A stretch of 46,242 nt of DNA, from the NCBI GenBank assembly GCA_964431205.1, contig CAYSIX010000001.1:1-46242 (forward strand), in the 5' to 3' direction. A program made the position numbers and the translations under genes. Source of the DNA: an uncultured Phycisphaeraceae bacterium (lineage in GTDB: Bacteria > Planctomycetota > Phycisphaerae > Phycisphaerales > Phycisphaeraceae). Of this stretch, positions 3,032 through 20,411 are shown piece by piece. The stretch's first letter is position 1. Each line of letters opens with the position of its first letter. The notes below the pieces were generated by a model. That model was not told where the DNA came from and did no database searches. It saw only the letters and a program-made list of their open reading frames with translations.

Positions 3032-4087
3032 TTACGCGAAAGCGTCCAAGCCGATCTGGTCCAACCAGGCGAACGGCTTCTCGAACTCGCTGAGAAAAAA
3101 CAGGATGCGCTCGTAGTCGGGTACCTTTGCCTGCCCCTCGATCCGGTAACAGGCCCACAGGCCGAGCATGGCCAGGGGCAACACGCGTTTTTCGGTCGCC
3201 GAAAGTGGTAGGATCGACTCGTAGGCATCAAGAAAGGCGCGCATCGGCTCGACTTTAAGAATCGGGCATTGTGTCAGTGACCAGATGTCGTTGCTGCGCA
3301 GTTCCCGCACGCGATGCGCGCCGAAGAAGAACATGCCCTCGGCGATATCACGAGTGCGCGCATCCCGCCATGCCCAGTCGAAGTCGAGCAGCGCGCGCAC
3401 CCGGCCATCCCGGTCGAACAGCAGATTGAAACAGTTGAAATCGCCGTGAATCACGTGGCCGCCGACCTGATCGTGCAGCACGGGCGGGTATTGCTCAGCG
3501 AGCCACCGGATCCGAGCCCGGGCGCGTTCGATCTGGGCACGATATCGCCGCTCCATCGGCAGCAACAGCAGGTGCTCGATCGCCTCGAGCATGGCGTGCG
3601 GGTCGTCTACGCGAGCGCGCTCCCGGACCGGTGGGTCGAGGTTGGTGAACTGGGGACACAGCGGTTCACAGGGCGCGGCATAGGAGGCGGCGGCACGATG
3701 AAAACAGGCGAGTGTCTCGGCGGCGGTTCGTCGTGCCGGGATCTCAAGCGAACGAGTGTACTGCATTCCTTCGATGAAGTCGTAGATCTCATAGACCTCA
3801 TGCTCAATCACAAGGGCGGTGCGGCCATCAGGCGTCGGCAACGGCGCATAAACGGGAAGTCCTAGGTCTTGAAGGTGGCGGCGCAGCCCGTGGTCGAAGG
3901 CGACGCGTGCGGGCTCGGACGTACGAACGCCGCGACGACGCACGAATTTTGTGCCGCCGTCAGTTTCGACTCGCCACGTTCGGCCGCCGGTGCCGCCGGC
4001 CGGTCGAAACGCACGCAGCCGCAACCCGTGCGCTTCCAGGATCTGGATCAGCAATGTTCGCCAATTGACTTCGGCAGTCTGCCTCAT
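3032..4087 (-). CDS. Phosphotransferase of the APH / choline-kinase-like family (substrate unknown; same fold family as anomeric amino-sugar kinases)
   Basis: 351 aa. Catalytic-loop motif HVIHGDFNCFNLLF (HxDxxxxN) and metal-binding LLDFDWA (DFD) are typical of aminoglycoside-phosphotransferase-type kinases. Confidence 0.7.
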   Translation of the reverse strand: MRQTAEVNWRTLLIQILEAHGLRLRAFRPAGGTGGRTWRVETDGGTKFVRRRGVRTSEPARVAFDHGLRRHLQDLGLPVYAPLPTPDGRTALVIEHEVYEIYDFIEGMQYTRSLEIPARRTAAETLACFHRAAASYAAPCEPLCPQFTNLDPPVRERARVDDPHAMLEAIEHLLLLPMERRYRAQIERARARIRWLAEQYPPVLHDQVGGHVIHGDFNCFNLLFDRDGRVRALLDFDWAWRDARTRDIAEGMFFFGAHRVRELRSNDIWSLTQCPILKVEPMRAFLDAYESILPLSATEKRVLPLAMLGLWACYRIEGQAKVPDYERILFFLSEFEKPFAWLDQIGLDAFA

Positions 4088-4582
4088 AGCGGTGGCCCGC
4101 CTCGGGAGGTGGGAATCAAGACCGCCCCAAGACTTTTAATCAAAACGATAATAAGATCTGCTCTCACTTGCAACTCACTGGCGACAGCGCGCCGGGGCCA
4201 CGTCGATGTCTGCACATGGCTCGTCCGCCCAAGCGGGCGAGGTCGCGTCGAGTGAACAAGCCGAAGATCGCCGATAGCCGATAGGATAACGGAATGACAG
4301 GCGAGAATCAGCGCGTCGCCTTGAGCCTGACGAGTCCCGCGTGGCAGCGAGGGACCGATCCATCGGCGCGGAAGGACGGCAGGTGACTTGAATGGCGTAC
4401 CAAGAGAAGGGGCACCCTCGCGGCGAGCCATGACACGAGTTGACGATGCGAACCGGGCGGCATATATTATCATGTAGTTATTTTCGGACCCAATCCGATC
4501 GTTAAGCGGCGTGGATTGGGACGTTGTGGAGCCCGTTGTCACGCCCCTTCCTCGTGGTCGTGCATAAAAAGGCGAACGTCAC

Positions 4583-5779
4583 ATGAACGTACCCGCGGAC
4601 GCGAACGGATTCGTCTCCCAGCTGGCCCTGCCCGGCGAATCCACGACGTCGTCGGCCTCCACCGCGGGGCGTCGGCGAAAGCCTCTGATCATCAACGCTC
4701 GGCACCGCAGGATCCTGCGTGCGGTGTTCCTCAACGGCCAGTCCTTTCGCCGCGAGCTTCACGACCTGACGGGAATCCGGCTCAATACTGTGGGGACGGA
4801 CGCCGCCGCGCTGGTCGAGGCGGGCATCCTGCGCGAGTGCGAGCCGGTGGCGTCCGAGGGCGGTCGGCCCCGCACGCCGTTGGAGATCGACCCGGACCGC
4901 AGGCGGGTGATCGGCCTGAGGATCGAAGAGAACTATGCCGAGTTGTCGCGCATGGACCTGAATGGGCAGCGCATCGGATCGGTGGACTCGTGTCGATCGG
5001 GAAATCCACAGTTGCTGGTTCGGATCGCCGCCGAGATGCTCACGGCGCATCGGGGGGACGACATCATCGCCATCGGCGTGACGGTGCCGCAGCGCGACGA
5101 GGAGCCATCAGACCGCCGCGAGTCCCCCGCAATCCGTATGGGCGATCGGGACATCAGTCTCAAGCCCATCCTGAAGGCCGCGGCCGACTGCCCGATCGTC
5201 ATCAAAGACTTCATGGAGGCGGTGACCGCCCGGTGGCTGCTGTCGTACCGCAATGAGCCGGACGACCAGGTGACGCTGGTCTATCTGGGTAACGGGCGGG
5301 TGCGCGCCGCGCATCTGGTGGCCGGCCAGCCGCTGCAGGGCGTCACATCCGGCAGCAGCGACCTGGGCGCTCTTCGTGTCTGTGTCCGCGATGAGGGCAC
5401 CGACGAGCCTCGACTCATCCGACTGGACCAGGTTCTTAGCACGAGCATGCTCAAGGGCACAGAACTCGAGGGTGTTCCACTTGAAGACCTTCTGCAATCG
5501 GAGGAGCTGCGCCCGCAAGTGGCGGAGATTCTCGACCACCTCGCGATGGTGCTGGCCAACTCCATCGTGCTGAACAAACCGCATCGACTGGTCCTAGTGA
5601 CCGAGATGCAGATGCACACCAACGCTGAGCGGTACGTGGCCGATCGGGTGTACGGGCTGCTGCCGCGAGCGCTGGCGCCGGTCGTCCGGGTGATCTTTCA
5701 AGAGCAGCACGTCGGGCCGCACGCCGACTCGGCCGCCTGGCTCCAACTGGCCAATCTTTACCTTGAGGGGTGGTCCTAA
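4583..5779 (+). CDS. ROK-like transcriptional regulator (divergent)
   Basis: 398 aa. N-terminal winged-helix segment (RRILRAVFLNGQSFRRELHDLTGIRLNTVGTDAAALVEAGILRE..GGRPRTPLEIDP) is followed by a sugar-kinase-fold domain starting VIGLRIEENYAELSRMDLNG. This is the NagC/XylR ROK repressor layout. The ROK zinc motif CxCGxxGC was not found. Confidence 0.5.
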   Translation: MNVPADANGFVSQLALPGESTTSSASTAGRRRKPLIINARHRRILRAVFLNGQSFRRELHDLTGIRLNTVGTDAAALVEAGILRECEPVASEGGRPRTPLEIDPDRRRVIGLRIEENYAELSRMDLNGQRIGSVDSCRSGNPQLLVRIAAEMLTAHRGDDIIAIGVTVPQRDEEPSDRRESPAIRMGDRDISLKPILKAAADCPIVIKDFMEAVTARWLLSYRNEPDDQVTLVYLGNGRVRAAHLVAGQPLQGVTSGSSDLGALRVCVRDEGTDEPRLIRLDQVLSTSMLKGTELEGVPLEDLLQSEELRPQVAEILDHLAMVLANSIVLNKPHRLVLVTEMQMHTNAERYVADRVYGLLPRALAPVVRVIFQEQHVGPHADSAAWLQLANLYLEGWS

Positions 5780-5828
5780 GCGAGCACGCGACGAACCCCC
5801 GCCGCGCCCCGCATCACAGTTCCTCGAG

Positions 5829-6935
5829 ATGAAGGACCCCGCACCACTCGACGCTTTGACTCCCAATCCGGCCAGCATAGCCGAAGTGGACCCGCATGAC
5901 TGCGGCGCACCGGGCCCGCTGAACCGACGCCGCGCCGCGCTGACCCAGACCGAGCACTTTTCCCTCGCCCCTTGGCCTGATGGACACCGCTGGGCCTACT
6001 CAATTACGTTTGACGAGGCGCTGGCTGACCTGCATCGATTCGCCGTACCTCTGCTCGCCGAGCACGAGGTCCCCGGCCACCTCGAGGTGGTCGTCAGCCA
6101 GATCGGCCGGATGCGTGAAATCGGCGACTCGAGCTACAACGGCATGCGGCACATGTCCGCCGAAGAGCTCCGCGAGATGCTGGACGCGGGATGGGGCGTC
6201 GGCAACCACAGCTGGTCTCACCGGATTGTCAACGCACAGACGTGTGAGCTCGAGCTCGGCCACGCCAAGGCCGTGCTGGAGCAAACGATCGGTCAGCGCG
6301 TCACCGTCTACTGTGCGCCCGGATCGAACGCCAACCTGAACGATGCGGCGATCGACGCCTGTCGCGCGTTCGGCTACCTCGGCGCGATGAGCATAACCGA
6401 TGCCCTGAACTGGCCGAACAGCGAGGACCTGCTCTGGATCAATCGAACGTTCCTGCATGATCACGGCTACGGTCCGTTCTTCTCCGCGTTCGACCCCTAC
6501 CGAAACATCCTGTACGCGCAACGGGACAGCGGATGGTTGATTGACTACCTGCATTGTCCTCTGGAACAACCCATTCATCCCCAAAAGGATTGCTCGGCGA
6601 ATCAACTGGAGCGTCGCCTCGCGGCGATCCGCGCGATCGGCGGCGATGAGGTTTGGTGCGCGCGGGTGGAAGACGCCGTTGAGTACCGGTATGTGTTGCG
6701 TCACGCCCACGTCGAGTCGCTCGGGCCGGCGTCCTACCGCCTGTCGCTTCGAAGCCTCCCCACCGAGGTATCGTCTCGGCGGCTCACGCTGCTGACCGAA
6801 TCGCGTGACGCCGTGGTCGAGATCAACGGGCGGCCGACGCGGGTGAGCCGGCGTTCCGGGGGCGTTGCCTGGATCACGTTGGACTTGAGCGAGCCGTTGA
6901 TCGTTCGATTCGCCTCAGAGACGCTGAACCTATGA
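5829..6935 (+). CDS. Polysaccharide deacetylase (CE4/NodB-like)
   Basis: ORF 5763..6935. The track start (TTG 5763) overlaps the upstream gene, so ATG 5829 is preferred but uncertain. NodB motifs present: SITFDE (TFDD-like) and GNHSWSH (HSxxH). Confidence 0.7.
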   Translation: MKDPAPLDALTPNPASIAEVDPHDCGAPGPLNRRRAALTQTEHFSLAPWPDGHRWAYSITFDEALADLHRFAVPLLAEHEVPGHLEVVVSQIGRMREIGDSSYNGMRHMSAEELREMLDAGWGVGNHSWSHRIVNAQTCELELGHAKAVLEQTIGQRVTVYCAPGSNANLNDAAIDACRAFGYLGAMSITDALNWPNSEDLLWINRTFLHDHGYGPFFSAFDPYRNILYAQRDSGWLIDYLHCPLEQPIHPQKDCSANQLERRLAAIRAIGGDEVWCARVEDAVEYRYVLRHAHVESLGPASYRLSLRSLPTEVSSRRLTLLTESRDAVVEINGRPTRVSRRSGGVAWITLDLSEPLIVRFASETLNL

Positions 6936-7828
6936 ACGATCCCCGCCCTGTCACCGTCGCGACCGCTTCGGTCTCCGTCCCCGGTCGGCCGAACGACCCC
7001 GAGGCCTACCGGGAGGCGAGCTTCGACCTGATTCGCCAGGCGGGTGAGCGCGGAGCCGACGTCGTCTGTCTTCCCGAGTTCACCTGTTCACGCCACATGG
7101 AGGGTGACCGCTTCGAGCCGGAGCCCGTCCCCGGCGCGGCATCCACGAAGCTTGGAGAGCTGGCCCGCGCGTATCACATGTGGGTGATCGGGTGCCTGCT
7201 GGAGAAAGCGGACGACGGCCGGTGCTACAACACCGCCCTGCTATTCGGGCGCGATGGCCACCTCGCGGGACGGTATCGCAAGACGCACCTGTGTCACCGG
7301 GACTGCGGTGAGGGAGAACGTGTCGCGGCGGGCGACGAAGTCCCGGTCTTCCGGACCGACTTCGGAACCATCGCCATCACCGTCTGCTTCGACATCCACT
7401 TCCCCGAGCTTTACCGGGCCATGGCCGATCAAGGCGCCGAGATCTTCTTCTGGCCCAGCGCTGCCATCGATTACACCGGTGAGCTGATCGAGCACATGGT
7501 CAACACGCGAGCGGTAGACAACCAGGCCTACGTCGTGACCAGTCACACCGTCGCGACGCCGTATCTGGTAGGCCGACCGTACGGGCGCAGCCGCATTGTT
7601 GATTGCATGGGCCGCACACGTGCCGACACCGGACACTTCCCGGGCCTCGCGATCGCGCGCATCGACCTGGCGCAGACCTACCCGACGTGGTACGCGGGCG
7701 TCGCATATGAGAAGTACCCGACGATGCGCGAGCTGTTTCGCCGGCACCGCCGGCCGGAGCTGTACGGGTGCGCCCCCGCGGCACCGAACGGTCCGCCGCG
7801 AGCTGGTGACGCCCGACCCGCCGGCTGA
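6932..7828 (+). CDS. Carbon-nitrogen hydrolase (nitrilase-superfamily amidase)
   Basis: 298 aa. Start overlaps the upstream stop (ATGA at 6932-6935). Glu-Lys-Cys triad contexts: VVCLPEF, GRYRKTHL, IAITVCFDIHFPE. Confidence 0.75.
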   Translation: MNDPRPVTVATASVSVPGRPNDPEAYREASFDLIRQAGERGADVVCLPEFTCSRHMEGDRFEPEPVPGAASTKLGELARAYHMWVIGCLLEKADDGRCYNTALLFGRDGHLAGRYRKTHLCHRDCGEGERVAAGDEVPVFRTDFGTIAITVCFDIHFPELYRAMADQGAEIFFWPSAAIDYTGELIEHMVNTRAVDNQAYVVTSHTVATPYLVGRPYGRSRIVDCMGRTRADTGHFPGLAIARIDLAQTYPTWYAGVAYEKYPTMRELFRRHRRPELYGCAPAAPNGPPRAGDARPAG

Positions 7829-7880
7829 TCCGCGGGGCGGCGGATGGTCTCGCACCAACGTGCAGGTGGTCGCGACGCGG

Positions 7881-8819
7881 TCACGCCATCGCGGCCAGGC
7901 GCGCTTCTCGATACGCCGACAAGTACGCGCTGCCGTCTTCACGCGACGCACGCTGCGGGTTCGCGAACAGGTCCTGCAGCTCGACGGCCACCCCATCGCG
8001 CTCCCGCGAGGTCAACGCGGCGATGCCTAGAAGCTCCGGTAGCAGCCAGCGGTCCGGCGTCATCGGCGCATGATCCGTCTGCCCGGCCAGGAATGGCAGC
8101 ACCGCGCTCAACGCGCTTCGGTGCAGTTGATCGTTCGACATTACGACAAACGTGTGAAACCGTTTATCCGTCGTGAGCGCATAGTAGAAGGGCAGCTTGG
8201 CGCGCGCCGGGCCGATCACGACTACCGCCGCCGTCTCGTCGGCGAACTCCACCAGAATCCGATCCTGCCCCTTCGTCCCCAGGTGCGTCACGCGGACGGG
8301 GTCCGAGGGAACGATGGCGACCAACCCGCTCAGCGCGTGCACGCCGTAGCCGAAGCGATCGACGCCGCAACCTGCCAGCACCGTGTGAATCCGCTCCCCC
8401 GAGGCGTCCAGCTCAGTTCGGCACACCCGCACCTCATCGGCGAACCGGATCGAGGACCCCCCCGAGACCCGTGCGCCCGACTCGACGAGTTGCCTGAGCG
8501 AGATCAGGTGATCGACCCGCCCCGCGACCGGCTTATCCAGAAACACGGACCGGCCGGCATCGAGGAACGGCCGGGCACGGTCCACGTGCGTGTCCCAGTT
8601 CGCGCCGCAAACCAACGCGCAGTCGACCAGCTCTGCGCATTGATCGAGCCTCTCGGCCACGTGGGGTATGTCGTGCTCAGCCGCGAACGACTCCGCGTAG
8701 CCCTCGGGATACACGTCGCCCGAGTCATAAACGCACACGACCTCGTGGCCCAGGTCCCGCAGGATCGGAACCCACCGACCGGGGTGTGATGTGTCCAGGT
8801 CTACAAATCCAACACGCAT
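7881..8819 (-). CDS. Gfo/Idh/MocA-like oxidoreductase with degenerate dinucleotide loop
   Basis: 312 aa. AAGGAAGG lies 8 nt upstream of the ATG. VFLDKP corresponds to the family EKP motif. The N-terminus MRVGFVDLDTSHPG lacks a clean GxGxxG. Confidence 0.5.
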   Translation of the reverse strand: MRVGFVDLDTSHPGRWVPILRDLGHEVVCVYDSGDVYPEGYAESFAAEHDIPHVAERLDQCAELVDCALVCGANWDTHVDRARPFLDAGRSVFLDKPVAGRVDHLISLRQLVESGARVSGGSSIRFADEVRVCRTELDASGERIHTVLAGCGVDRFGYGVHALSGLVAIVPSDPVRVTHLGTKGQDRILVEFADETAAVVVIGPARAKLPFYYALTTDKRFHTFVVMSNDQLHRSALSAVLPFLAGQTDHAPMTPDRWLLPELLGIAALTSRERDGVAVELQDLFANPQRASREDGSAYLSAYREARLAAMA

Positions 8820-8847
8820 GCAACGACCCTTCCTTGATGTGGGTCTA

Positions 8848-10107
8848 CTATCGCCGATGCCGCTTGGCGACCGTGGCGACGATCTCCACCGCCGTCGCCA
8901 CGTCCTGCTCTGTGTACTTTTCGCAGAACGACGCCCAGCGGATCATGTGCTCGATGTATGCCGAGGCGTTGGGACAGTCCTCGCGCACGTAGCGATGTTG
9001 GCCCGTCGCCGGCGGCGAGGAGTACGGCCACTCGCCTCGCTCGGCACGCTCGCTCAGAAACGGAAGCGCCGCCGGCATCAGGTAATACCGGCACGTGCCG
9101 ATCTTGGGAATGCCCGCCTCGGCGCACTCCTCGGCGAACTGGTCGGCGTCGCAGCGGAACCGCTCCGGATCGATGCGGAAACTGGCCATCCAGCACGAGT
9201 ACCGCTCGGTGTGGTCCGGGATCGTCGGGGGAAGGATGCCCGGGATCTTGCCCAACTCATCGATCATCAGGCGGATCATGCGGTCGCGCTGCGTCACGTT
9301 CGCCTCGGCGTCCTCGAGCTGCGCGATAGTGACCGCCGCCGACACCTGCGGAAGCCGGTGCGCAAAGCCCTGGTGCGTGTGAACCCGGCCGAAGCGCGGC
9401 TTCATCTGCCCGCCCCGGCTGTGCCCGATGAACCGCGCAAAGTCCGCGAAGCCCTCGTCGTCTGTCACCAGCGCCCCGGCGATGTCCGACCCGATCGTCT
9501 TCTCGGAGTCGAAGGAGAAGCACGCGGCATCGGCGAGCGTCCCGGCCAGCCGCCCCTTGTAGATCCCGAAAGCGGACTGACAGACGTCTTCGATCACGAA
9601 CAGCCCGCGATCACGCGCCAGCTCCATCACCGGATCCATGTCGATGAACAGGCCCGTCATGTGGACGCAGATGATCGCGCGGGTGCGAGTGGTGAGCTTT
9701 GCCTCGATCGTCCGGGCGCTGATGTTCACGTTGTCCGGCTCCGTGTCGGCGAAGACCGGGATCAGACCGAGTTCGATCAACCCCGTGATCGTGCCGTAGT
9801 CGGTGATGCAGCTGACGATCACCTCGTCGCCCGGCTCGAGCCGAAGCGCCGCGGCCGCCATCTTCATCGCCGGGTTGCACCCCGGAGAGGCGACGCAGTG
9901 TTTCCGGCCGAGCATCCCAGCCAGTTTCTGCTCCAACCGACCGGACATGTTGATCGCCAGCCCGGCGTCCACCACCTCGGACAGGTACTTCATCGTGTTC
10001 TTGCCCATCACACGCGGGAATGGGATCGGCAGGCGCCCTTCCTCGCCCGCCAGCGCCGCCGCGCCGAACTTCGCCGCGCCGAACGATGCGGCCTCGAGCT
10101 TTGTCAT
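8848..10107 (-). CDS. DegT/DnrJ/EryC1/StrS-family PLP-dependent aminotransferase
   Basis: 419 aa. Family blocks: GDEVIVSCITDYGTITGLIELGLIPVFADTEPD, HMTGLFIDMDPVMELARDRGLFVIEDVCQS, and Schiff-base lysine context ACFSFDSEKTIG. AAGGAAG RBS upstream. Confidence 0.75.
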   Translation of the reverse strand: MTKLEAASFGAAKFGAAALAGEEGRLPIPFPRVMGKNTMKYLSEVVDAGLAINMSGRLEQKLAGMLGRKHCVASPGCNPAMKMAAAALRLEPGDEVIVSCITDYGTITGLIELGLIPVFADTEPDNVNISARTIEAKLTTRTRAIICVHMTGLFIDMDPVMELARDRGLFVIEDVCQSAFGIYKGRLAGTLADAACFSFDSEKTIGSDIAGALVTDDEGFADFARFIGHSRGGQMKPRFGRVHTHQGFAHRLPQVSAAVTIAQLEDAEANVTQRDRMIRLMIDELGKIPGILPPTIPDHTERYSCWMASFRIDPERFRCDADQFAEECAEAGIPKIGTCRYYLMPAALPFLSERAERGEWPYSSPPATGQHRYVREDCPNASAYIEHMIRWASFCEKYTEQDVATAVEIVATVAKRHRR

Positions 10108-10189: not shown

Positions 10190-11035
10190 TCACCCCTTCA
10201 CGGCCCCTGCCGCGATCCCCCGCTGTATGAACCGTTGCAGACATACGTAGATCACGATCATCGGCACCACCATGATCACCAGCGCCGCGAACGCCGTGCC
10301 CCACTGGCTGTTGTTGCTCGCCGACAGCGTCACGTTCGCCAACGCCAACGGCAGCGTCTGTACCCGCTCGACGTCCGCGTTCGACAGCAGCATGAATGCC
10401 AGAAAGTACTCGCTCCACGTCGCGAGGAACGAGAAGATCGCCACGGTCGCCAGCGCTGACCGGCCCAGCGGAACCACCACGTGCCAGAACACCTGCCAAT
10501 GGCTGGCGCCGTCAATGAACGCCGCCTCCTCGAGACTCCGCGGCAGTCCGCGGAAGAAACCAGATAACACCAAAACCCCGAATGGCAGGCCGAACCCCAC
10601 GTACGCGAGGATTAGCCCAACCCGCGTGCCCAGCAGCCCCGTGTCCCGGAAATGGAAGAACAGTGGCACGACCGCGAGCTGGACCGGTATCATCAGCCCC
10701 GCCACGAAAAGCGCGCCGATCGCTGCGCGGCCGGGCAGACAGAACCGCGTCAGGGCGAACGCCGCCATGGCCGACAACAGTGTCGTCACGATCACGACCG
10801 CCGTGTTGATCACGACGCTGTTGACAAACGCCATGCCGATACCCCCACCCCCCCAAGCTTGGCGGTAGTTCGACCAATGCAGATCGCTCAGCCGGGGAAG
10901 CCCGAATGGCGAAAAGAAGATGTTCTGGTTCGACTTGAGGCTCGAAAGAAACAGCCACAGCATCGGCAGAACCACCGACAGACCAAACCCGATCAGGATC
11001 ACGGCTCCCAGCCACGTCATCGGCCGACGAATCAT
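10190..11035 (-). CDS. Carbohydrate ABC transporter permease (MalG-type)
   Basis: ORF 10190..11251. Start moved to ATG 11035 (MIRRPMTWLGAVILIGFGL). The upstream part of the ORF is Arg/Ala-rich and overlaps the neighbouring gene. Multi-TM protein with EAA loop SLEEAAFIDGASHWQVFWHVVVPL. Confidence 0.85.
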   Translation of the reverse strand: MIRRPMTWLGAVILIGFGLSVVLPMLWLFLSSLKSNQNIFFSPFGLPRLSDLHWSNYRQAWGGGGIGMAFVNSVVINTAVVIVTTLLSAMAAFALTRFCLPGRAAIGALFVAGLMIPVQLAVVPLFFHFRDTGLLGTRVGLILAYVGFGLPFGVLVLSGFFRGLPRSLEEAAFIDGASHWQVFWHVVVPLGRSALATVAIFSFLATWSEYFLAFMLLSNADVERVQTLPLALANVTLSASNNSQWGTAFAALVIMVVPMIVIYVCLQRFIQRGIAAGAVKG

Positions 11036-11064
11036 GACCCCGAGCGTGGTGGCCGCACCGCTGC

Positions 11065-13623
11065 TCACGCGTGCACCTCCTCCCCCCGCATCACGCGAAA
11101 CGACAGCATCGACAGCCCGAACGTCATCACGAACAGAAGCACGGCCAGCGCGGCCGCTTCGCCCACCCTCAGCTCGAAGAACATGGTCTGCACCAGCCGC
11201 GTCCCGATAACGTGCGACTGCTCGCCCGGGCGTTGATCGGTCAGCAGCCACACCACCTCGAACGTCTTCATGCTCATAATGAGCAGAAACACGACGACGA
11301 TCGTGATCATGTGCCGGATCATTGGCACCGTGACCGACCAGAACTGACGGGTCCGACCCGCGCCGTCGAGGTCGGCGGCCTCATACAGGCTCTTGGGGAT
11401 CTCGCTCATCGCCGCCAGGAATAGCAGCATGTTGAACCCCACGGTCATCCAGATCAGGATCGGCAGGATGGACCAGTACAGCATGCGCTGCGAAAGCCAC
11501 GGAAACCCGTCGAACCGCTCCAGCCACGCGCCCCATGACGCGACCGAGCCCCCGAGGTAGCCGACGCCCGCCCCGTCCAGCATGGCCGCGAACCCGCTGA
11601 CCCATTGGCCGAGCATGACCAGTATCGCGTTGATCGGCCCGCTCTGCGGGTCGTACAGGTGTGTCCACAGCAGCGCCGCCGCGACACCGCCCAGAAAGTT
11701 CGGGAACAGCAACACGACACGCAACACATGCGCGCCGACGATGCCCCGAAGGATGAGCACCGCGAACGCCAGCGACAGCGGCACCACGCAGAGTGGGACC
11801 AGCACCGCGATGAACAGATTGTTGACCAAAGCGCTCCAGAACCCGCTGCTCTCCAGCAGCAGCCGACGAAAGTGGGTCAGCCCGTACCACGCGGCGTCGC
11901 CCAGCCCGTTCCACCGAACAAACGCCCACCGAAATGCATGCAACGATGGCATCAGGACGATCAGCACATACACCAGCGCCGCCGGCCCGATGAACATGGC
12001 CACCCCACGGAAGCCGAGCCTTTGCGTAGTCCCCCGATGCACGACGTCGGCTCGGCTCGCCGAGCGGCGCGACCAACGGACTTGGCCGAGCACCGACCGG
12101 ACGATCCACAGCATGCCCACTACCGTCACGGCCAAGAACGCCGCCGCCCGCCACGGGTGCTTGACCTGCACCAGCGTGGGGTCGGCACGCCGCTGGCGGA
12201 GCATGTCCGCGGCGGCCTCGAGCTCGGCCGCGATCTGACGCGGCGTCTTGCGCAGCTCCAGCAGGTCCTCCCGCGCGTTGCTCCACGCCTGCAGCATCTC
12301 CGGGGCGGCATCCGTCGACGAACCGTACGTTTCACGTGCCGCTCGCACCATCGGCAACAACGACTCGATGTCCGGGTCCAGGCCCTCGTTGGCGCCCCGC
12401 GTCGCGACCAGCGTCTGCTTCGCCACGGCGAACCGGTTCGCCTGCTCACGCGATGTTAGAAACCGTAAAAAGTCCACCGCCGCCTCAGGCGCCGCGCCGT
12501 CACGAAACACAAAGAACTGCGCTTGGTACGTCTTGAGCGCCGTCGGATCGCCCACACCTTCCTCGAAGACCGGCAGCGGGAACGACCCAAGCCGAAAGTC
12601 CTCCGGAATGACGTCCGACATCTCTGATTTCAACCACGACCCGTTGAAGATCATCGCGGCCTGGCCCAGGAAGAACTGTGCCTGGGCCTCGATGTGCCCC
12701 TGACTCATCGCGCCGGGCTGAAAATAGTCGCGCGACAGGTGCTGGACGACCTCGAACGCCCGGATCATCGCCGGATGGTTGAACGCCCCGGGCTCCAGGT
12801 CGATCTGAGCCTGATACGCCTCGGCGCCAGCCAGGCTGTAGAACGCGGACTCGTAAATCGTCGACGCGTAGTGCGTGCGACGACCCGGGAAGGCGATTGG
12901 GGCGACGCCGGCCCGCTTCAGGCGTTCACAAGTCTCAAAGAACTCCTCCCACGTGCGCGGCGGCTCCAGGCCGTGCTCTTTAAAGATCCGTTGGTTGTAC
13001 CAGACGGCGTACACGGCATAAGCCACGGGGATCGCGTATACCTTGCCCTGGTGCCGGAACCCATCGAGGCTGCCGGGCAGAAACGTTTCCCGCCAAGTCT
13101 GATCTCCCTCCCAGTTGGGGCCCTCGAGGTACTCATCGAACGACAGCAGGTGCCCGCTCTCGATCAACGCCCAAGGCGTGCGAACGGCGTCGGTCACGTC
13201 GGGGATCGATCCGGCGAGCACCCGGATCTGGACCTTGTCCATCATCACCGGATCGCCGTACAACCGCACTTCGACGCCGGGACGGACCGCCTCGTATGCG
13301 CGGGCGGCACGCAGGTAGCCATCGATCCCATACCCCCCGTCATAGAATGGCGCATCGACCACGACGCTCCTATCCGGCCGAGCCGGCTCGGGCGGCGCGA
13401 GCGAAGTCGCCGACGCCCCGCGGGGAATCGTCACCAGCAGGATGGACACGCCGCACAACCAACTCGATGACACGGCCGCTTGCCAAGGCCGCCGGCGTCG
13501 CAAACATCTCGGACGGGCTGCGGTCATGGACTTCCCGAGGCGTCGCACAGACTCTCGTGGCCTGACAAGATCCAAGCCTCTCCAACCAGGCGACGCGATC
13601 CACTTCTTCATCGCCATGACCAC
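11065..13623 (-). CDS. Fusion protein: family-1 extracellular solute-binding domain + MalF-type ABC permease
   Basis: Single 852-aa ORF.
- N-terminal basic region plus hydrophobic anchor (AAVSSSWLCGVSILLVTI).
- aa ~85-500 resemble sugar binding proteins (YAIPVAYAVYAVWYNQRIFKEHGLEPPRTWEEFFETCERLKRAGVAPIAF; FNGSWLKSEM).
- An extra TM helix (AAAFLAVTVVGMLWIV) and a basic loop follow.
- Then a permease core with EAA loop LYEAADLDGAGRTRQFWSVTVPMI.
Start is GTG 13623 or ATG 13617/13611, that is 4-16 nt after the DUF1559 stop. Confidence 0.8.
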   Translation of the reverse strand: MVMAMKKWIASPGWRGLDLVRPRESVRRLGKSMTAARPRCLRRRRPWQAAVSSSWLCGVSILLVTIPRGASATSLAPPEPARPDRSVVVDAPFYDGGYGIDGYLRAARAYEAVRPGVEVRLYGDPVMMDKVQIRVLAGSIPDVTDAVRTPWALIESGHLLSFDEYLEGPNWEGDQTWRETFLPGSLDGFRHQGKVYAIPVAYAVYAVWYNQRIFKEHGLEPPRTWEEFFETCERLKRAGVAPIAFPGRRTHYASTIYESAFYSLAGAEAYQAQIDLEPGAFNHPAMIRAFEVVQHLSRDYFQPGAMSQGHIEAQAQFFLGQAAMIFNGSWLKSEMSDVIPEDFRLGSFPLPVFEEGVGDPTALKTYQAQFFVFRDGAAPEAAVDFLRFLTSREQANRFAVAKQTLVATRGANEGLDPDIESLLPMVRAARETYGSSTDAAPEMLQAWSNAREDLLELRKTPRQIAAELEAAADMLRQRRADPTLVQVKHPWRAAAFLAVTVVGMLWIVRSVLGQVRWSRRSASRADVVHRGTTQRLGFRGVAMFIGPAALVYVLIVLMPSLHAFRWAFVRWNGLGDAAWYGLTHFRRLLLESSGFWSALVNNLFIAVLVPLCVVPLSLAFAVLILRGIVGAHVLRVVLLFPNFLGGVAAALLWTHLYDPQSGPINAILVMLGQWVSGFAAMLDGAGVGYLGGSVASWGAWLERFDGFPWLSQRMLYWSILPILIWMTVGFNMLLFLAAMSEIPKSLYEAADLDGAGRTRQFWSVTVPMIRHMITIVVVFLLIMSMKTFEVVWLLTDQRPGEQSHVIGTRLVQTMFFELRVGEAAALAVLLFVMTFGLSMLSFRVMRGEEVHA

Positions 13624-13627
13624 GGGC

Positions 13628-14443
13628 TCAATTGTACGGGTCCCACTTGTTGTTGTCGGGTTGCTCGAACGCGTCGGTCAGCTCATCCTCGCCGTAGGGG
13701 TTGTAACCCTGCGTCTCGACACCGTCGTCGATCTTGACCGCCGTCACGTGCGAATCCGCCCACAACGTATTCACCGCGCCCGAGTGTCGTGCGCCGGGCA
13801 TGAGGCGGTTATTGAGGCCCCACACCCACGTGGCGTTCACAATGTACCACCCCGAGGAGTTTGGTTCCGGGAACGCCTCCGAGGTCAGTTGCCAGGTGTC
13901 GAGCATCGAGATCGTCGAGCTGGCATTACGCACCTCTTCGACCTTGGCCGGCGTGTTCGCCGGCCGAAGCCCCTTCGGGTCACCCTGGTACCCCCATAGC
14001 CGGTCTTCGTTCGCCCCGTAGTTGATCGTGCGCCAGAGCGAATGCCGTAGATCAAACTCCGATCCACTCACCGGCAAGTCCGCGTAGGGATCCACGGGAG
14101 CGTCGGGACAGTTGTAAGCCTCTGTGGAGCTGGTGTACTGCTGCTTGATAAACATCGCCGGCCAGTAGGGAATGTCGCTCAGGCTGACACCACTTCCGAC
14201 GGGCAGGACCTGGCCGGAGGGCGGAAACGAGTTGTCGTAGTCCTGATGGTACAGGGCCACGACCAGTCCCAACTGCCGAATGTTGGACATGCAGTTGACG
14301 TTTCGGGCCGCCTGGCGGGACGCCCCCAGCGCCGGCAACAGGATCCCGATCAGGATGGCAATGATCGAGATGACAACGAGCAACTCGATGAGAGTAAACG
14401 CGGAACGAATTGGGCCATGCCGTGAAACAGGATAATCAGACAT
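13628..14443 (-). CDS. Prepilin-type N-terminal cleavage/methylation domain protein, DUF1559 (H-X9-DG) family
   Basis: Start at ATG 14443 (AAGGTG 6 nt upstream); the track ORF begins at GTG 14452. [58 protein letters not shown] is a class III (pilin-like) signal. The C-terminal [16 protein letters not shown] is the H-X9-D(G) motif, here D-S. Confidence 0.85.
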
Positions 14444-14600
14444 CAGGCGCACCTTTTCTGGAAGCTCGTGGAGTAAGTGAAACCATTGTCACGATCTGGT
14501 GGTACGTCACGACGGCGTGAAGGCGCCACACTCCCGATCGCGGGAAAGTGCATTCGCCGCCAAACGCGTGGGCGCTGACCGCCATCCGCCGCTCCCCGCG

Positions 14601-16170: not shown

Positions 16171-16256
16171 TATTACCATACCGTTAATAGCTGCCCGGTG
16201 ATCTTGGGTGGACCACGTTTGACCGGGCCGCAGCACCCGTGAGAGGAGATAGCAGC

Positions 16257-17171: not shown

Positions 17172-17216
17172 GGACCCATCGCTTGCTCTGTATGCGGTCT
17201 AGTTGCAGTTCCTTCG

Positions 17217-17258
17217 AGGGCGTTGCGCGGTGAGGGTCCGCCGCGCAACGCCCTTTTC
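17217..17258 (+). terminator. Strong hairpin + T-run (intrinsic terminator or attenuator) after the 16257..17171 gene
   Basis: AGGGCGTTGCGCGG (17217-17230), 10-nt loop, CCGCGCAACGCCCT (17241-17254), then TTTC. The 14-bp stem is perfect and GC-rich. Confidence 0.7.
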
Positions 17259-17280
17259 ACTCGACTCCAGGAGCAGCCCC

Positions 17281-19524
17281 TTGCAGGATCTGCAGCCACG
17301 GCTGATCGCTCCAACCCGCCGTCCTCGGCTCAATCACGACACGGTCGAGCGCGGCCCCGCCGCTCGCGATCGTCGCGTCGCCGTAACGGGCCTGCTGGCG
17401 GCGCTGGTCAGTGTCGTCGCGACGCTCGCTGTAACGAACGCCCAAGCCGACTCCGCCGTTCATCAACAGATCACCGACGAGGCGACGCTCTGGGCCGAAG
17501 ACCTCTATCAGCGTATGAACTGGTACGTGCCACTGATCCGCTTTTCGTCGACCGGGTCCGGCCCCAACGACCCGCGGTACGACGCCAAGCACCTCTACGA
17601 CATGAGCTATTACGACGAGGCCCGGCTCGTGCAGTTCCAGAACACGCGTGATCCGGCGATCGCCGACCAGTTGCTCACGGAGTTGGAGTTCGTCCTCGAC
17701 CTGCGGACCGGCGGGCCGCTGGACCCGTACCCGGACCCGCCCGAGACGTTGCGGACAGGGCCGACCGGGCCACGATGGGTCAGTTTCAATCGCTACTACA
17801 CCCAGGTGGCCAACCCGCCGCGGCACGCCTGGTTCGCCCACAACGCCCAGTACTTGTCCAACCACCTGCGCCTCATCGGCATGATCCGCAACGATTCAGA
17901 GTTGCACGCCGAGTTTGCCGACCGGATCGATTCGATCGTCCCGATCGCGGCGGAGATTCTCAATGGATTCGACCATGAGTTCCAGCACTACTCCGACGGC
18001 GTGCGCGGGCTCTACACCGACCCGTTCTACGCGTCACTTGGCGGAGGCACGTCCACTTATCCCGGTCTGCTGCCCTTGAACATGCAGTCGGCGGCGGGCT
18101 CGGCCTATCTGGGGCTCTACCAGGCCTCCGGTGAGGAGCAATATCGTGAACGCGCCGAGGCGCTGGCGCTGACGATGAAAAGCGATCTGGTCGCGTCCGG
18201 CGACCGGTATCTGATGGCCTACGGCCAGGACCAGCGTTACGCGGCCGGACGGGAGGACATAGGGCACGGCGCCGTCAGCATCGCCTTCATCGTCGAGGCC
18301 TACGAGGCGGGCCTGGTCTTCAACGACACGGACCTGGCGCGTCTGAGCAACACGCTGCGGGCGATGAAGAAGTCCAATGGCGAGTTCTCGTTCTTCCTCG
18401 ACGGGACGGACCACAGCGGTACCACGGGCGTCAATCCGGCGGGCCTGGCCAACCGCTGGCTCCGCCTGGCGTACTACGAACCTGAGCTACGCGCCGAGAT
18501 GTGGGACCATCTACACCCGTACTACGATACCAACAACAGCTCGTCCGCGGTGTACACGGCCCTGGCCATGGCCCACTACGCCGTCTCGGGCGAATCGCAT
18601 CGCCCTGAGCGGATGTTCGTCGACCGCTTTGACGGGCCGCAGATCAGCGCTCGTTGGCGGCGGCCGTCGGATGAGTCGCTCGATGTCTTCTGGGTCACCA
18701 GCGTTCAAGACGGAGCGCTTCTTGTTCGCGACGTTGTCGACAACGCGTCCTACCCCTCGAAGTGGGTAGGCCTGACGCGTAGTCGGGAAGTATCGCCGAT
18801 CGGATCCTGGTCCGTCGAGGTTGATCTGGAGTGGAACGCCGCCGAGGCCGGCTCAAACGCGCTCAACGTCGAGCACGCGTTTCTGGTGCAGTTGCTCGAC
18901 GACGAGGGCGACGTCTTCGCGTCCCTGGGCCTGGCGGACCTGTGGCCCGAGCAGACCGCGGGCAGGCAGTGGTCGCTCGCGGGCACCTCGAGCCGATCGG
19001 CCCACCCCGGCGAGCTGGATCAGGTCGGCCGGGCACTGCTTCAGATACGAAGCCTTGAAGACGAAGCGCGAACGGAGTTGTATTGGGATCAGACGATGCT
19101 CGCGGAGTGGGACGGCTACCATACACTGAGCGAGGTCCTGCTTGTTTTTGGCAAGCACTATCCGAGCCAGGGCAGCGCGAACATGGGCGATTTCACGATC
19201 CACCGCGTCGCCGTGAACGAGCTCGCGGCCCCCACCGTGCCCGGCGATGCCGACGGGGACGGCGACGTGGACGCGTTCGACCTGGGTATCTGGCAAACCG
19301 ATTTCGGAATGACCGGCGCGAGCCTGGCGGCCGACTTCGACGCGGACGGCGACGTCGACGGGTTCGATCTTGGCCTGTGGCAGACAAACTTCGGCCGTAG
19401 CGCCCAAGGCGTGACGGTGCCCGTGCCATCCGTCGGGGTGCTGATGGTGGTCAGCGCGCTGCTGGGTGTTGGTCGACAGGACCGGGCCATCGCCCGAGGC
19501 CGAATCGCTCACACGCAACGATGA
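17281..19524 (+). CDS. Large exoprotein of unknown function with C-terminal double dockerin-like cassette and degenerate PEP-CTERM tail
   Basis: ORF 17203..19524, but the hairpin at 17217-17258 lies in its 5' end. The first plausible start after the hairpin is TTG 17281 (AGGAG 9 nt upstream). Signal-like RDRRVAVTGLLAALVSVVATLAVTNAQA. Helix-rich central region, then a beta-rich region (FVDRFDGPQISARWRRP...). GDADGDGDVDAFDLGIWQTDFG / DFDADGDVDGFDLGLWQTNFG. The tail VPVPSVGVLMVVSALLGVGRQDR has VPVP instead of VPEP. Confidence 0.7.
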   Translation: MQDLQPRLIAPTRRPRLNHDTVERGPAARDRRVAVTGLLAALVSVVATLAVTNAQADSAVHQQITDEATLWAEDLYQRMNWYVPLIRFSSTGSGPNDPRYDAKHLYDMSYYDEARLVQFQNTRDPAIADQLLTELEFVLDLRTGGPLDPYPDPPETLRTGPTGPRWVSFNRYYTQVANPPRHAWFAHNAQYLSNHLRLIGMIRNDSELHAEFADRIDSIVPIAAEILNGFDHEFQHYSDGVRGLYTDPFYASLGGGTSTYPGLLPLNMQSAAGSAYLGLYQASGEEQYRERAEALALTMKSDLVASGDRYLMAYGQDQRYAAGREDIGHGAVSIAFIVEAYEAGLVFNDTDLARLSNTLRAMKKSNGEFSFFLDGTDHSGTTGVNPAGLANRWLRLAYYEPELRAEMWDHLHPYYDTNNSSSAVYTALAMAHYAVSGESHRPERMFVDRFDGPQISARWRRPSDESLDVFWVTSVQDGALLVRDVVDNASYPSKWVGLTRSREVSPIGSWSVEVDLEWNAAEAGSNALNVEHAFLVQLLDDEGDVFASLGLADLWPEQTAGRQWSLAGTSSRSAHPGELDQVGRALLQIRSLEDEARTELYWDQTMLAEWDGYHTLSEVLLVFGKHYPSQGSANMGDFTIHRVAVNELAAPTVPGDADGDGDVDAFDLGIWQTDFGMTGASLAADFDADGDVDGFDLGLWQTNFGRSAQGVTVPVPSVGVLMVVSALLGVGRQDRAIARGRIAHTQR
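19243..19395 (+). repeat. Dockerin-like double EF-hand cassette, copy 2 of 3 (coding)
   Basis: Same 51-codon block as 14703..14855 (-) and 41423..41575 (+). Confidence 0.85.
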
Positions 19525-20411
19525 GAGCCAAGATGCCTGACGACGCCCAAGACGTGCCCAGCGTCCAGATCTCACCGCGGTACTATCGATGGTTCGTCGA
19601 TTGCGACCGGCCGTGGCGTGAGTCTCACACGGGCTACGACCACTTGGAGTGGCAGGTGCCCGTCGGGTCGATGGCCCTGGTACTCGTCGACGTGTGGGAC
19701 CGCCACTACCTGCCCGAGCCGCAGGAACGGATCGATCGGATCACCCGGGACATGATTCGCCCGCTGGTCGAGGCGTGTCGGGAAGCCGGCGTCCACGTGA
19801 TTCACGCGCCGTCAGCCGAGACCGCGGAGCGGTACCGTGACCATTGGCCGGCTGGCACGGCGTCCCAAGCGGCGGAGCGGCCGGATTGGCCGCCGGCGTC
19901 GTTCCGAGCGCGGACCGGGCCTTATCGTCGATTCGCCGGTCGCGACGAGCCGGGGCGGCAGGAGTGGGAAGCGCTCAAGAGCTCTCGGCGGATTCACCCG
20001 GCAGTCGCCCCCCTCGCCGGCGACAGCGTGGTGCCCGACGCCGACGCCCTGCATCGGTTGTGTCGCGAACGCAAATTGTTGTTTCTCTTTTACGCCGGCT
20101 TCCACACCAACAGCTGCGTGCTGCTTCGCGATTATGGCATGTGGGCGATGTCGCAGCGCGGCTACGCCACCGTGCTGTTGCGCGACGCCACGACCGGGCT
20201 GGAGGCGTCTTTCACACGCGACACCATGGAGCAGACCCGGCAGACGACGCTCCTGCTCGAGATGTTCGGCAGCTGCAGCATCCCAAGCGGCGAGCTGCTG
20301 ACCGCGCTCGACGCGCTGCGGACGTCGAGCGACGGCGAATCATGTCGGTCCTCTGTCGCGCCGAGCACACCCCTCATCCCCGCTTCACGCATCGAGAGTC
20401 AATCGACATGA
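19521..20411 (+). CDS. Isochorismatase-like cysteine hydrolase (amidase-type)
   Basis: 296 aa. ATGA overlap with the upstream stop at 19521-19524. Family blocks: MALVLVDVWD (Asp strand) and LLFLFYAGFHTNSCVLLRDYGMWAMSQRGYATVLLRDATTG (nucleophile Cys context G..T..CV ... v.Da). Confidence 0.55.
   Translation: MRAKMPDDAQDVPSVQISPRYYRWFVDCDRPWRESHTGYDHLEWQVPVGSMALVLVDVWDRHYLPEPQERIDRITRDMIRPLVEACREAGVHVIHAPSAETAERYRDHWPAGTASQAAERPDWPPASFRARTGPYRRFAGRDEPGRQEWEALKSSRRIHPAVAPLAGDSVVPDADALHRLCRERKLLFLFYAGFHTNSCVLLRDYGMWAMSQRGYATVLLRDATTGLEASFTRDTMEQTRQTTLLLEMFGSCSIPSGELLTALDALRTSSDGESCRSSVAPSTPLIPASRIESQST

Follow-up and report, generated by a model that had tools for sequence, protein, structure and literature searches.

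We analysed a stretch of 46,242 nucleotides from an uncultured Phycisphaeraceae bacterium (assembly GCA_964431205.1, contig CAYSIX010000001.1), called the window here, and within it a gene cluster built around an aminotransferase of the DegT/DnrJ/EryC1/StrS family that depends on pyridoxal 5′-phosphate (PLP). The window has a G+C content of ~65% and looks planctomycete-like in character, because it carries two DUF1559/prepilin-type genes and a gene for a PEP-CTERM protein. Two plus-strand genes of the cluster encode a CE4-family metallo-deacetylase (5829..6935; PF01522, 50.7 bits against a cut-off of 23.1) and a nitrilase-superfamily (Nit-like) cysteine amidase, the CN-hydrolase (6932..7828; PF00795, CN_hydrolase, 148.5 bits); the stop codon of the first overlaps the start codon of the second in an ATGA. 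On the minus strand lie the aminotransferase, DegT1 (8848..10107; PF01041, 204 bits against 19.8), and, 28 bp behind it, a short, 312-residue predicted NAD(P) oxidoreductase of the Gfo/Idh/MocA fold, Gfo312 (7881..8819; PF01408, 33.9 bits against 24), which is preceded by a ribosome-binding-like motif (AAGGAAGG). Gfo312 is the final gene of an operon that also holds DegT1 and genes for an importer; this operon and the deacetylase-amidase unit converge, with their stop codons 52 bp apart. A gene for a probable ROK/NagC-like regulator of 398 residues (4583..5779, +) stands ahead of the CE4 gene. The initial annotation of this DNA had described these five genes in this coupled and convergent arrangement, and both the open reading frames (ORFs) and the family matches confirm it.

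The central result is that CE4 deacetylase, amidase and DegT aminotransferase form a three-enzyme core whose linkage is conserved across genomes. We searched 80 loci around DegT1 orthologues in species-representative genomes with the proteins of the window; 80 loci from metagenomes were compared as well, and 173 loci (labelled by L and a number) entered the analysis overall. A gene was counted as linked when it lay on the same strand within 6 kb of DegT1, and 57 loci extend at least 6 kb to both sides (full-flank loci). CE4 is linked to DegT1 in 72 of the 80 genome loci and an amidase of either of two kinds in 70, with the full triad present in 67; in the full-flank loci the corresponding numbers are 55, 54 and 53 of 57, and the last of these rules out chance juxtaposition. 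CE4 and amidase are near-universal partners of DegT1, and the triad is kept in at least 10 phyla (Chloroflexota, Latescibacterota, Gemmatimonadota, Planctomycetota, Hydrogenedentota, Armatimonadota, Verrucomicrobiota, Omnitrophota and others). The order of the genes varies (DegT-CE4-CNhyd, CNhyd-CE4-DegT, CE4-CNhyd-DegT, DegT-isochor-CE4 and isochor-CE4-DegT, where isochor is the second kind of amidase, an isochorismatase-like hydrolase), which argues that the linkage is maintained by selection and not by ancestry of one operon. One locus, L085, was assigned to Gemmatimonas phototrophica. A metagenome scan with the DegT1 protein alone returned nothing, and an alignment-based scan returned no relative closer than 58%.

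A second triad lies in the window itself. At 19521-23499 (+), three translationally coupled genes encode an isochorismatase-like cysteine hydrolase (19521..20411; PF00857, 36.7 bits against 27), a second DegT-family aminotransferase, DegT2 (20408..21661, with its true start read from the translation; PF01041, 276 bits), and a 630-residue protein with a weak CE4-like domain (21607..23499; PF01522, 20.3 bits, below the cut-off). The start of DegT2 overlaps the stop of the hydrolase gene in an ATGA-type junction at 20408-20411. DegT2 is 31% identical to DegT1 (BLASTP 4e-44), and the 630-residue protein has no significant similarity to the first CE4 protein. The closest relative, L092, whose DegT1 is 71% identical over the part present on the contig, holds within 15 kb the CE4, CN-hydrolase and DegT1 genes, ATP-binding cassette (ABC) transporter genes, a ROK regulator, DegT2, a heparinase II/III-like protein, a CE4-like protein of 600 residues, an isochorismatase-like hydrolase and Gfo312. 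The CE4-like protein of its DegT2 operon is 50% identical to the 630-residue protein, and the isochorismatase-like proteins of the two loci are 47% identical. The order of the second-triad genes differs in L092, where they share one operon with the heparinase II/III-like gene and the Gfo312 homologue. The window and L092 each hold two complete triads, and because L092 packs within 15 kb what is spread over 27 kb in the window, we infer that these genes act together. The extent given to the system initially was too narrow; the second triad is part of it, as is an MLE-type gene (23570-24910) that had been left unlinked.

The amidase position of the core is filled in two ways. Next to DegT1, a CN-hydrolase gene occurs in 27 of the 80 genome loci (20 of the full-flank loci) and an isochorismatase-like gene in 43 (34), and no locus has both. 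Lineage determines which form occurs. The CN-hydrolase is the form found in Caldilineaceae, Anaerolineae, Hydrogenedentota, Omnitrophota, Verrucomicrobiota and some Planctomycetota, and the isochorismatase-like hydrolase that of Latescibacterota, Gemmatimonadota, other Chloroflexota and Armatimonadota. Judged by protein family, this is one functional slot filled by two unrelated families of cysteine hydrolases, apparently a clean non-orthologous displacement, and it defines one testable enzymatic step. Residues E49, K117, E127 and C152 of the CN-hydrolase are invariant in 11 orthologues. In the isochorismatase-like hydrolase, which is weakly similar to cysteine hydrolases of the biuret and triuret hydrolase type, the nucleophile C199 is invariant, but among 12 aligned sequences the Asp and Lys of the canonical Asp-Lys-Cys triad could not be recognised as invariant positions. 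Both families include N-carbamoyl amidases. The CE4 protein and the amidase had initially been called two N-deacylases; for the latter, which is most like Nit2/omega-amidase and replaceable by an isochorismatase-like hydrolase, it is one possible reading only.

The best relatives of the CN-hydrolase in the PDB are mouse Nit2 omega-amidase (2w1v, 8e-28), yeast Nit3 and NitFhit. Omega-amidases normally pull glutamine-dependent amination, and the module could accordingly be imagined to run in the opposite direction: DegT would use glutamine as its donor, as BtrR and StsC do, the amidase would hydrolyse 2-oxoglutaramate and so make amination irreversible, and a sugar that was imported or oxidised by Gfo312 would be turned into an amino compound for salvage or small-molecule synthesis. 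Glutamine-donor DegT enzymes do exist, BtrR and glutamine-scyllo-inositol transaminase are among the PDB sequence matches of DegT1, and the amidase often directly adjoins DegT. However, the CN-hydrolase falls short of the curated omega-amidase and Nit1 models (38.8 bits against 249 for the 2-oxoglutaramate amidase model PRK10438, 88.1 against 355 for the deaminated-glutathione amidase model NF033621 and 75 against 500 for NF043013). In the window and in L092, each DegT has an amidase of a different kind, which would be redundant if both cleared one shared by-product, and in Paenibacillus and Cohnella the CN-hydrolase is tied to Gfo312 and an enolase-superfamily gene with no DegT nearby. In addition, a deacetylase has no obvious role in amination, and the surroundings are importer and lyase genes, not biosynthetic ones. 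On this evidence, we consider amination unlikely.

The CE4 gene begins at ATG 5829; the TTG at 5763 that mechanical ORF calling had chosen was dropped on alignment with homologues. Orthologues from other loci are 37-63% identical to the window protein, and in an alignment of 22 sequences (A3) the residues D62-E63 (in TYDE; T-Y/F-D-E), H84, H127 and H131 (in HSWSH) and D239-Y-x-H242-C-P are invariant, the second acidic residue of the TFDD-like pair being Glu, not Asp. By these features the protein is a predicted metallo-deacetylase of a divergent, highly conserved and cytoplasmic orthogroup. Compared with the solved CE4 enzymes, a single-sequence search of the PDB gave nothing and a profile search gave remote polysaccharide deacetylases (E 6e-5). 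The identity of a PuuE-type allantoinase was considered and rejected, as the PDB search detected no similarity to it and the profile search led to polysaccharide deacetylases only. Read from the translations, CE4, CN-hydrolase, DegT1 and Gfo312 have no signal peptides, which points to a compound that is taken up and then processed in the cytoplasm. In L092, the CE4 orthologue (1865-2825, −) aligns as two pieces in different frames (49% and 62% identity), which points to a frameshift, either a sequencing error or a pseudogene.

DegT1 belongs to an orthogroup of ~415-residue proteins that are 53-60% identical across phyla. Its PLP lysine, K203 (SFDSEKT), is invariant in 22 orthologues and corresponds to the Schiff-base lysine of an aminotransferase, as opposed to a His-type dehydratase; the lysine motif of DegT2 is SLNNSKH. 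The AlphaFold model of DegT1 (predicted local distance difference test score, pLDDT, 89.6) shows a fold-type I PLP fold, with template-modelling (TM) scores of 0.72-0.80 to Fic25, perosamine synthase, ArnB, BtrR and WecE. Fic25 is the top structural match in Foldseek and is matched over the full length, including the C-terminal extension (TM 0.79-0.80, ~430 columns, 27% identity); GDP-perosamine synthase, ArnB and BtrR follow close behind. The substrate of Fic25 (PDB 8GYH, identified through Foldseek and PMC11726168) is a carrier-linked amino-dihydroxy-oxoheptanoate, not a nucleotide sugar (PMC11726168). Five cysteines of the DegT1 orthogroup (C71, C77, C176, C378 and C395) are invariant and four more nearly so. 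One sits within the usual ‘SGT’ motif (PGC77T). Such a set of cysteines is unusual among DegT enzymes and suggests a metal or redox site.

Enzymes of the DegT family are almost always annotated as biosynthetic for nucleoside diphosphate (NDP)-aminosugars, and the public names of DegT1 orthologues are generic ones of this kind, for example ‘perosamine synthetase’ and ‘dTDP-4-amino-4,6-dideoxygalactose transaminase’. Such a role would make Gfo312 and DegT1 a pair like GnnA/GnnB or WbpB/WbpE that serves lipid A or a surface glycan and has catabolic neighbours by chance. Those pairs do consist of a Gfo/Idh/MocA and a DegT protein, ArnB/ArnD provides a precedent for DegT and CE4 occurring together in biosynthesis, and DegT1 matches WbpE, ArnB, WecE and perosamine synthase by sequence or structure, with pairwise sequence scores that are alike for NDP-sugar and non-nucleotide members. 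However, when both DegT proteins were compared with the curated NCBIfam equivalogs for NDP-sugar aminotransferases (WecE, ArnB, PseC, LegC, DesI and RfbH), neither reached a cut-off: the best score of DegT1 is 142 bits against 375 (PRK11706), with ArnB at 137 against 631, and DegT2 scores at best 203 against 420 for LegC and 185 against 423.5 for PseC. DegT1 shares its operon with an importer, and most DegT loci have no Gfo312, whose coupling is to an enolase-superfamily gene instead. In agreement with the initial annotation, no nucleotidyltransferase, glycosyltransferase or flippase family was detected among the window ORFs scanned, several of which have no family match at all, nor was an acyltransferase partner found. 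Nucleotidyltransferase, glycosyltransferase and flippase families do not recur among 123 clusters of neighbouring genes in the 173 related loci, within the limited sensitivity of that comparison, and RmlA- and RmlB-like queries gave one weak match each across these loci plus the window. A divergent rmlBCAD operon beside a DegT2 locus (L094) looks like an unrelated neighbour. NDP-aminosugar biosynthesis is thus very improbable.

The genes that do accompany the core encode transporters (CUT1 ABC, MFS, DUF6785 and SSF), regulators (LacI, AraC, ROK and a Reg_prop/Y_Y_Y hybrid sensor) and glycan-related proteins (heparinase II/III-like, DUF4962, FG-GAP, DUF4838, GH42/GlmA-like and GH123 proteins and a sulfatase). 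Because these neighbours are importers, polysaccharide-lyase-like proteins and hydrolases, and not nucleotidyltransferases or glycosyltransferases, they support a catabolic, non-nucleotide role. In one genome (L003) a gene for alanine dehydrogenase directly follows DegT. The combination of a catabolic transaminase with alanine dehydrogenase is established in taurine:pyruvate aminotransferase systems, and the match to it here likewise argues for catabolism. The earlier view of the cluster as a functional unit with a catabolic, importing context is thereby extended to many phyla, across which glycosyltransferase and NDP-sugar genes are not co-conserved with it.

The initial annotation had paired the dehydrogenase with DegT. 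Gfo312 is present in 6 of the 85 loci first examined and in ~8 of the 80 metagenome loci; it is an accessory and not a near-universal partner of DegT1. It belongs to a small family (~305 residues, 86 matches) and stands directly behind DegT1, as in the window, in L065, L107, L122, L138 and L166, and after the triad in L007 and L172. Pfam matches its N-terminal Gfo/Idh/MocA domain only, but the AlphaFold model (pLDDT 94.6) has the complete two-domain Gfo/Idh/MocA fold, with full-length Foldseek matches at E 1e-16 and TM 0.70-0.78. The nearest folds are those of 1,5-anhydro-D-fructose reductase, KanD2, inositol dehydrogenases, NanOx/YjhC and GenD2, at 13-19% identity. Residues D95-K96-P97 (EKP-like), D154 and H161 are invariant or nearly so; the GxGxxG dinucleotide motif is not present in 25 family members, which have an invariant VDLDTSHP at residues 6-13 instead.

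In other genomes, Gfo312 is translationally coupled to a gene of the enolase superfamily. The window’s enolase-superfamily enzyme, of the MLE subgroup (23570..24910, −; MR_MLE_C, 48.8 bits), has 47%-identical homologues in L084 and L122, where their genes adjoin the stop codon of Gfo312 or overlap it; more distant MR_MLE-type genes overlap Gfo312 in L089 and L090 (~21-22% identity, alignment A5), and L091 has a partial 53% match at a contig end. Residues K221/K223 (KxK), D256, E289, D315 and K338 are invariant, and the best profile matches are N-succinyl-amino-acid racemases, muconate cycloisomerases and Ala-Glu epimerases. In two cultured Firmicutes, Paenibacillus whitsoniae (L089 8447-12243) and Cohnella hashimotonis (L090 7995-12222), a CN-hydrolase gene precedes the coupled Gfo312 homologue and enolase-like gene in a block with no DegT nearby, and these species offer experimentally accessible entry points. 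The Cohnella block has a 2-hydroxyacid dehydrogenase where DegT would stand, plus ABC importer, GH123 and GH36-like genes.

The APH-family kinase encoded at 3032..4087 (−; PF01636, 65.9 bits) had been proposed as a possible member of the set, and the comparison agrees: homologues (27-33% identity, >85% coverage) lie inside the DegT operons of L055, L084, L095, L109, L122 and L155. A NahK/AmgK-like identity was considered; the kinase is distant from solved kinases, with remote homoserine-kinase and YtaA matches only. On a 7-kb soil contig (L122), CE4, CN-hydrolase, DegT1, Gfo312, enolase-superfamily and APH genes make up a six-gene operon with gaps of 0-8 bp, a compact set that is ready for expression. 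Two further window genes recur beside DegT1 or DegT2, including in several Caldilineaceae. They encode an SDR-type oxidoreductase of the NAD epimerase/dehydratase family (28980..30029, +; PF01370, 38.3 bits) and a DHDPS-family protein resembling pyruvate-dependent class I aldolases/dehydratases (30081..31133, +; PF00701, 23.9 bits). Homologues of the former (41-57% identity) stand beside a DHDPS-like gene in L094, L101, L103, L109, L035 and L047, and homologues of the latter (49-66%) occur in these six loci and in L014, L017 and L033.

The importer genes lie upstream of DegT1 on the minus strand. A CUT1-type ABC permease (MalG/GlcU-like; 10190..11251; BPD_transp_1, 59 bits; NCBIfam GlcU and MalG below cut-off), whose true start is probably nearer 11065, is preceded by an 852-residue ORF (11065..13623) in which an NgcE-like solute-binding domain is fused to a MalF/UgpA-like permease (SBP_bac_1, 110.6 bits, residues 106-395; BPD_transp_1, residues 715-842; NgcE model, 216 bits against 400). 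The two domains extend over residues ~86-477 and ~560-852; such fusions are unusual for CUT1 importers, and L092 encodes its binding protein and permeases separately. No ATPase gene was found in the importer operon of the window. A DUF1559/prepilin-type N-methylation protein (13628..14452, −; PF07596 and PF07963) is encoded 4 bp upstream of the importer ORF. Another lies at 38226-39158 (+), and members of the family also precede the DegT operons of L087 (5685-6392) and L094 (952-1932). That DUF1559 genes head sugar-catabolic operons here and in distant phyla hints that some members of this family, which is hugely expanded in planctomycetes, are tied to substrate uptake.

The ROK-like protein has no Pfam match at E 0.01, and its NCBIfam matches to NagC and allose kinase are weak (E ~2e-4). 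The L092 protein with Pfam HTH_20 and ROK domains, encoded between the ABC genes and the DegT2 operon, shares 36% identity with 87% of its length. No homologue was found in the other 170 loci, and no CxCGxxGC zinc motif was seen in its sequence. The similarity in L092 is compatible with the initial assignment as a ROK-like regulator, and conservation is confined to this closest relative; the protein is probably a divergent ROK/NagC-like regulator with an N-terminal winged helix-turn-helix and a degenerate sugar-kinase fold. Its gene and that of the APH kinase diverge across a 495-bp intergenic region, which is more likely to be their divergent promoter/operator. This region contains a sigma-70-like match at 4440..4468 (+; TTGACG-17-TATATT, 10/12), a consensus match only. 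Across the promoter and terminator scan, matches were at consensus level only and terminator counts were no higher than in shuffles. An ORF of 152 residues at 4084-4542 (−), which overlaps the APH start, is probably spurious: it matches no family, none of the loci has a homologue of it, and its translation is of low complexity.

Downstream of the second triad, the MLE-type gene is followed by a gene for a GntR/sugar-binding regulator, and further on come full-length Gfo/Idh/MocA, NagB-like, NagA-like, SDR, DHDPS-family and IlvA-like genes. Because all of these share the window with the second triad and the MLE-type gene, the window is, as far as predicted gene content tells, a catabolic island of amino-sugar flavour. 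Specifically, the regulator, with its GntR and periplasmic-binding folds (24907-28967 region), is divergent from genes for Gfo/Idh/MocA (26096-27268), NagB-like (27265-28014) and NagA-like (28011-28967) proteins, whose stops and starts overlap; neither Nag-like protein reaches its curated NagA or NagB cut-off, and at its N-terminus the NagA-like protein falls ~55 residues short of the model. At 34992-37649 (−), a UxaE-type tagaturonate epimerase gene (398 bits) adjoins another Gfo/Idh/MocA gene, so hexuronate-type catabolism appears to share the window.

Three proteins of 367, 310 and 773 residues (14601-15704, −; 16239-17171, +; 17203-19524, +) have no family assignment; the first and third show sub-threshold dockerin-type (calcium-binding repeat) matches only, and the gene of the 773-residue protein runs with its stop codon into the start of the isochorismatase-like gene. 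The equivalent position is taken elsewhere by FG-GAP beta-propeller or heparinase II/III-like proteins, and for this reason the three may be unrecognised glycan-active enzymes. Other long ORFs without a Pfam match (734, 405, 379, 245 and 527 residues) lie at 768-2972 (−) and 40568-45839; the gene for the PEP-CTERM protein (40544-41689, +) overlaps the 405-residue ORF on the opposite strand, and only one of the two is likely real.

The explanation that we favour, with somewhat better than even confidence, is a conserved module that takes an N-acylated amino compound derived from carbohydrate and breaks it down in the cytoplasm after import. The CUT1-type ABC importer, under the ROK-like regulator, would take up the compound; the divergent CE4 metallo-deacetylase and the cysteine amidase, Nit-like here and isochorismatase-like elsewhere, would remove N-acyl or amide groups; and the DegT enzyme would deaminate a free, non-nucleotide substrate, passing the amine to a 2-oxo acid and leaving a keto compound. 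The latter would then go to Gfo312, acting with the MLE-type enzyme and the APH-type kinase, and in some genomes to the SDR and the DHDPS-type aldolase. The scheme of deacylation, transamination and reduction proposed initially is a fair first-order model of this, except that the dehydrogenase is optional and tied to the MLE-type enzyme and kinase. The favoured explanation draws on the arrangement with alanine dehydrogenase in L003, on the full-length match of DegT1 to Fic25 with its non-nucleotide substrate, and on the structural proximity of Gfo312 to 1,5-anhydrofructose reductase as well as to KanD2 and GenD2, each of which is the dehydrogenase in a dehydrogenase/DegT-type aminotransferase pair for free glycosides.

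The substrate might instead have nothing to do with carbohydrates. Candidates would be amino acids with an N-acyl or N-carbamoyl group, peptides or peptide fragments of the cell wall, and cyclic ureides or lactams. Such a compound could be opened or deacylated by CE4, its amine freed by a decarbamoylase or amidase, its stereochemistry set by an MLE-type racemase and its amino group transferred by DegT. N-carbamoyl amidases in both amidase families fit this proposal. So do the enolase-like protein, whose closest relatives are N-succinyl-amino-acid racemases and dipeptide epimerases, the amino-acid-derived chain on which Fic25, the nearest structure to DegT1, acts, and a set of other neighbours: hydrolases (M20, C45/AAT, S9/S15-like, M16, M14 and creatininase-family), amidohydrolase, class-V aminotransferase and PLP decarboxylase. 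However, the importers belong to the CUT1 type for carbohydrates and come with an NgcE-like binding domain, the regulators (ROK, LacI, AraC and the Reg_prop/Y_Y_Y hybrid sensor) are of sugar type, and heparinase II/III-like, DUF4838, GH42/GlmA-like, GH123 and sulfatase neighbours recur; the window has NagA-/NagB-like genes, and similarity of the CE4 orthogroup to PuuE-type allantoinases was not detectable in the PDB search. A non-carbohydrate substrate is, in our view, a minority possibility.

Several observations weigh against the carbohydrate module that we favour. We know of no characterised member in any of its orthogroups. The peptidase and amidase neighbours would suit a non-sugar N-acyl amine or peptide as well, the nearest relatives of the CN-hydrolase are omega-amidases, whose normal role would reverse the direction, and the scores of DegT1 to Fic25 and to GDP-perosamine synthase are nearly equal in both structure and sequence. 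Gfo312, the enolase-like gene and the kinase are missing from most DegT loci. Finally, nearly all relatives are metagenome-assembled genomes, and genes in the loci were called crudely, from the longest ORFs together with tblastn.

Within the carbohydrate module, our preferred substrate is an N-acetyl amino-sugar acid, aldonic or uronic, to which we give about half of the credence of the module as a whole. Gfo312 would form or accept this acid, the MLE-type enzyme would epimerise or rearrange it, and deacylation followed by transamination would yield a 2-oxo acid. Several features suggest this version: enzymes of the MLE subgroup act beside carboxylates and are similar to N-acyl-amino-acid racemases; Fic25, which DegT1 resembles, takes a linear oxo-polyol acid; DegT is replaced in Cohnella by a 2-hydroxyacid dehydrogenase; DHDPS-type and uronate-lyase-like genes recur; and the window holds NagA-/NagB-like genes and an NgcE-like binding domain. 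More broadly, the core may represent a widespread and so far unrecognised non-phosphorylative catabolism of amino sugars or amino-sugar acids, with a DegT that deaminates a free substrate, a dedicated cytoplasmic CE4, an amidase in two unrelated forms and an optional lower branch of Gfo, MLE and APH proteins, a generalisation that we put at a little short of even.

Should the orthogroup prove catabolic, a large number of proteins from Chloroflexota, Latescibacterota, Gemmatimonadota, Planctomycetota, Hydrogenedentota, Armatimonadota and other phyla carry a wrong annotation, and these phyla matter for the turnover of glycans and necromass in soil, water and sponges. The module would then point to a missing route for amino sugars that are barred from NagA/NagB, such as 6-deoxy, uronic, aldonic, 3-/4-amino and di-N-acyl forms. 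To our knowledge, no such gene combination has been described. A literature search, with incomplete coverage, on the combination, on DegT in polysaccharide utilisation and on DegT with omega-amidase found nothing relevant, in line with the initial statement that no characterised pathway has this composition.

Known systems share parts of this design. KanD2/KanS2, GenD2/GenS2, NtdC/NtdA and inositol dehydrogenase with StsC or BtrR use the same two folds to interconvert hydroxyl, keto and amine groups on free sugars; Gfo312 has KanD2 and GenD2 among its best structural matches, and DegT1 matches BtrR and NtdA. However, such pairs are biosynthetic and aminating, whereas the window genes lie in a context of import and degradation; identities are low (13-19% for Gfo312, 22-28% for DegT1), and here CE4 and amidase are obligatory and the dehydrogenase optional. 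GnnA/GnnB and WbpB/WbpE (UDP-GlcNAc(A) 3-dehydrogenase and 3-aminotransferase) likewise pair Gfo/Idh/MocA with DegT, but they act on nucleotide sugars among acetyltransferase and glycan-assembly genes, of which none were found here, and the curated models are not reached. Fic25, the DADH aminotransferase of ficellomycin/azinomycin (PDB 8GYH-8GYJ), is DegT-like and takes a linear amino-oxo-polyol acid instead of an NDP-sugar; it belongs to a secondary-metabolite cluster and works on a conjugate with an amino-group carrier protein, for which no gene was seen here. In the couple of glutamine transaminase and omega-amidase (Nit2, YafV), an aminotransferase is also genetically coupled to a Nit-like amidase, but that couple has no CE4; here the curated models are missed, the amidase is replaceable by an isochorismatase-like enzyme, and one island holds two amidases for two DegTs.

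Two further systems are catabolic. NagA/NagB (AgaA/AgaS) catabolism also deacetylates and then deaminates, and NagA-/NagB-like genes lie elsewhere in the window (27265-28967); however, the canonical pathway handles 6-phosphates with an amidohydrolase and an isomerase-deaminase and has no transaminase, and the module is without such enzymes. The Pseudoalteromonas pathway for oxidised chitin (GlcNAc1A) employs the D-aminoacylase OngB, the PLP deaminase OngC and KdgK (PMC9537276). Like the module as proposed here, this route for chitin oxidised by lytic polysaccharide monooxygenases is cytoplasmic and non-phosphorylative and takes an imported amino-sugar acid, from which a deacylase removes the N-acetyl group and then a PLP enzyme the amino group before a kinase acts (PMC9537276). 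The two are set apart by their enzyme families, an amidohydrolase-type D-aminoacylase and a D-amino-acid deaminase there, CE4, a cysteine amidase and a DegT transaminase here. The enzyme families and amino-sugar catabolism as such are known; a DegT-centred, non-phosphorylative route with interchangeable amidases would be new.

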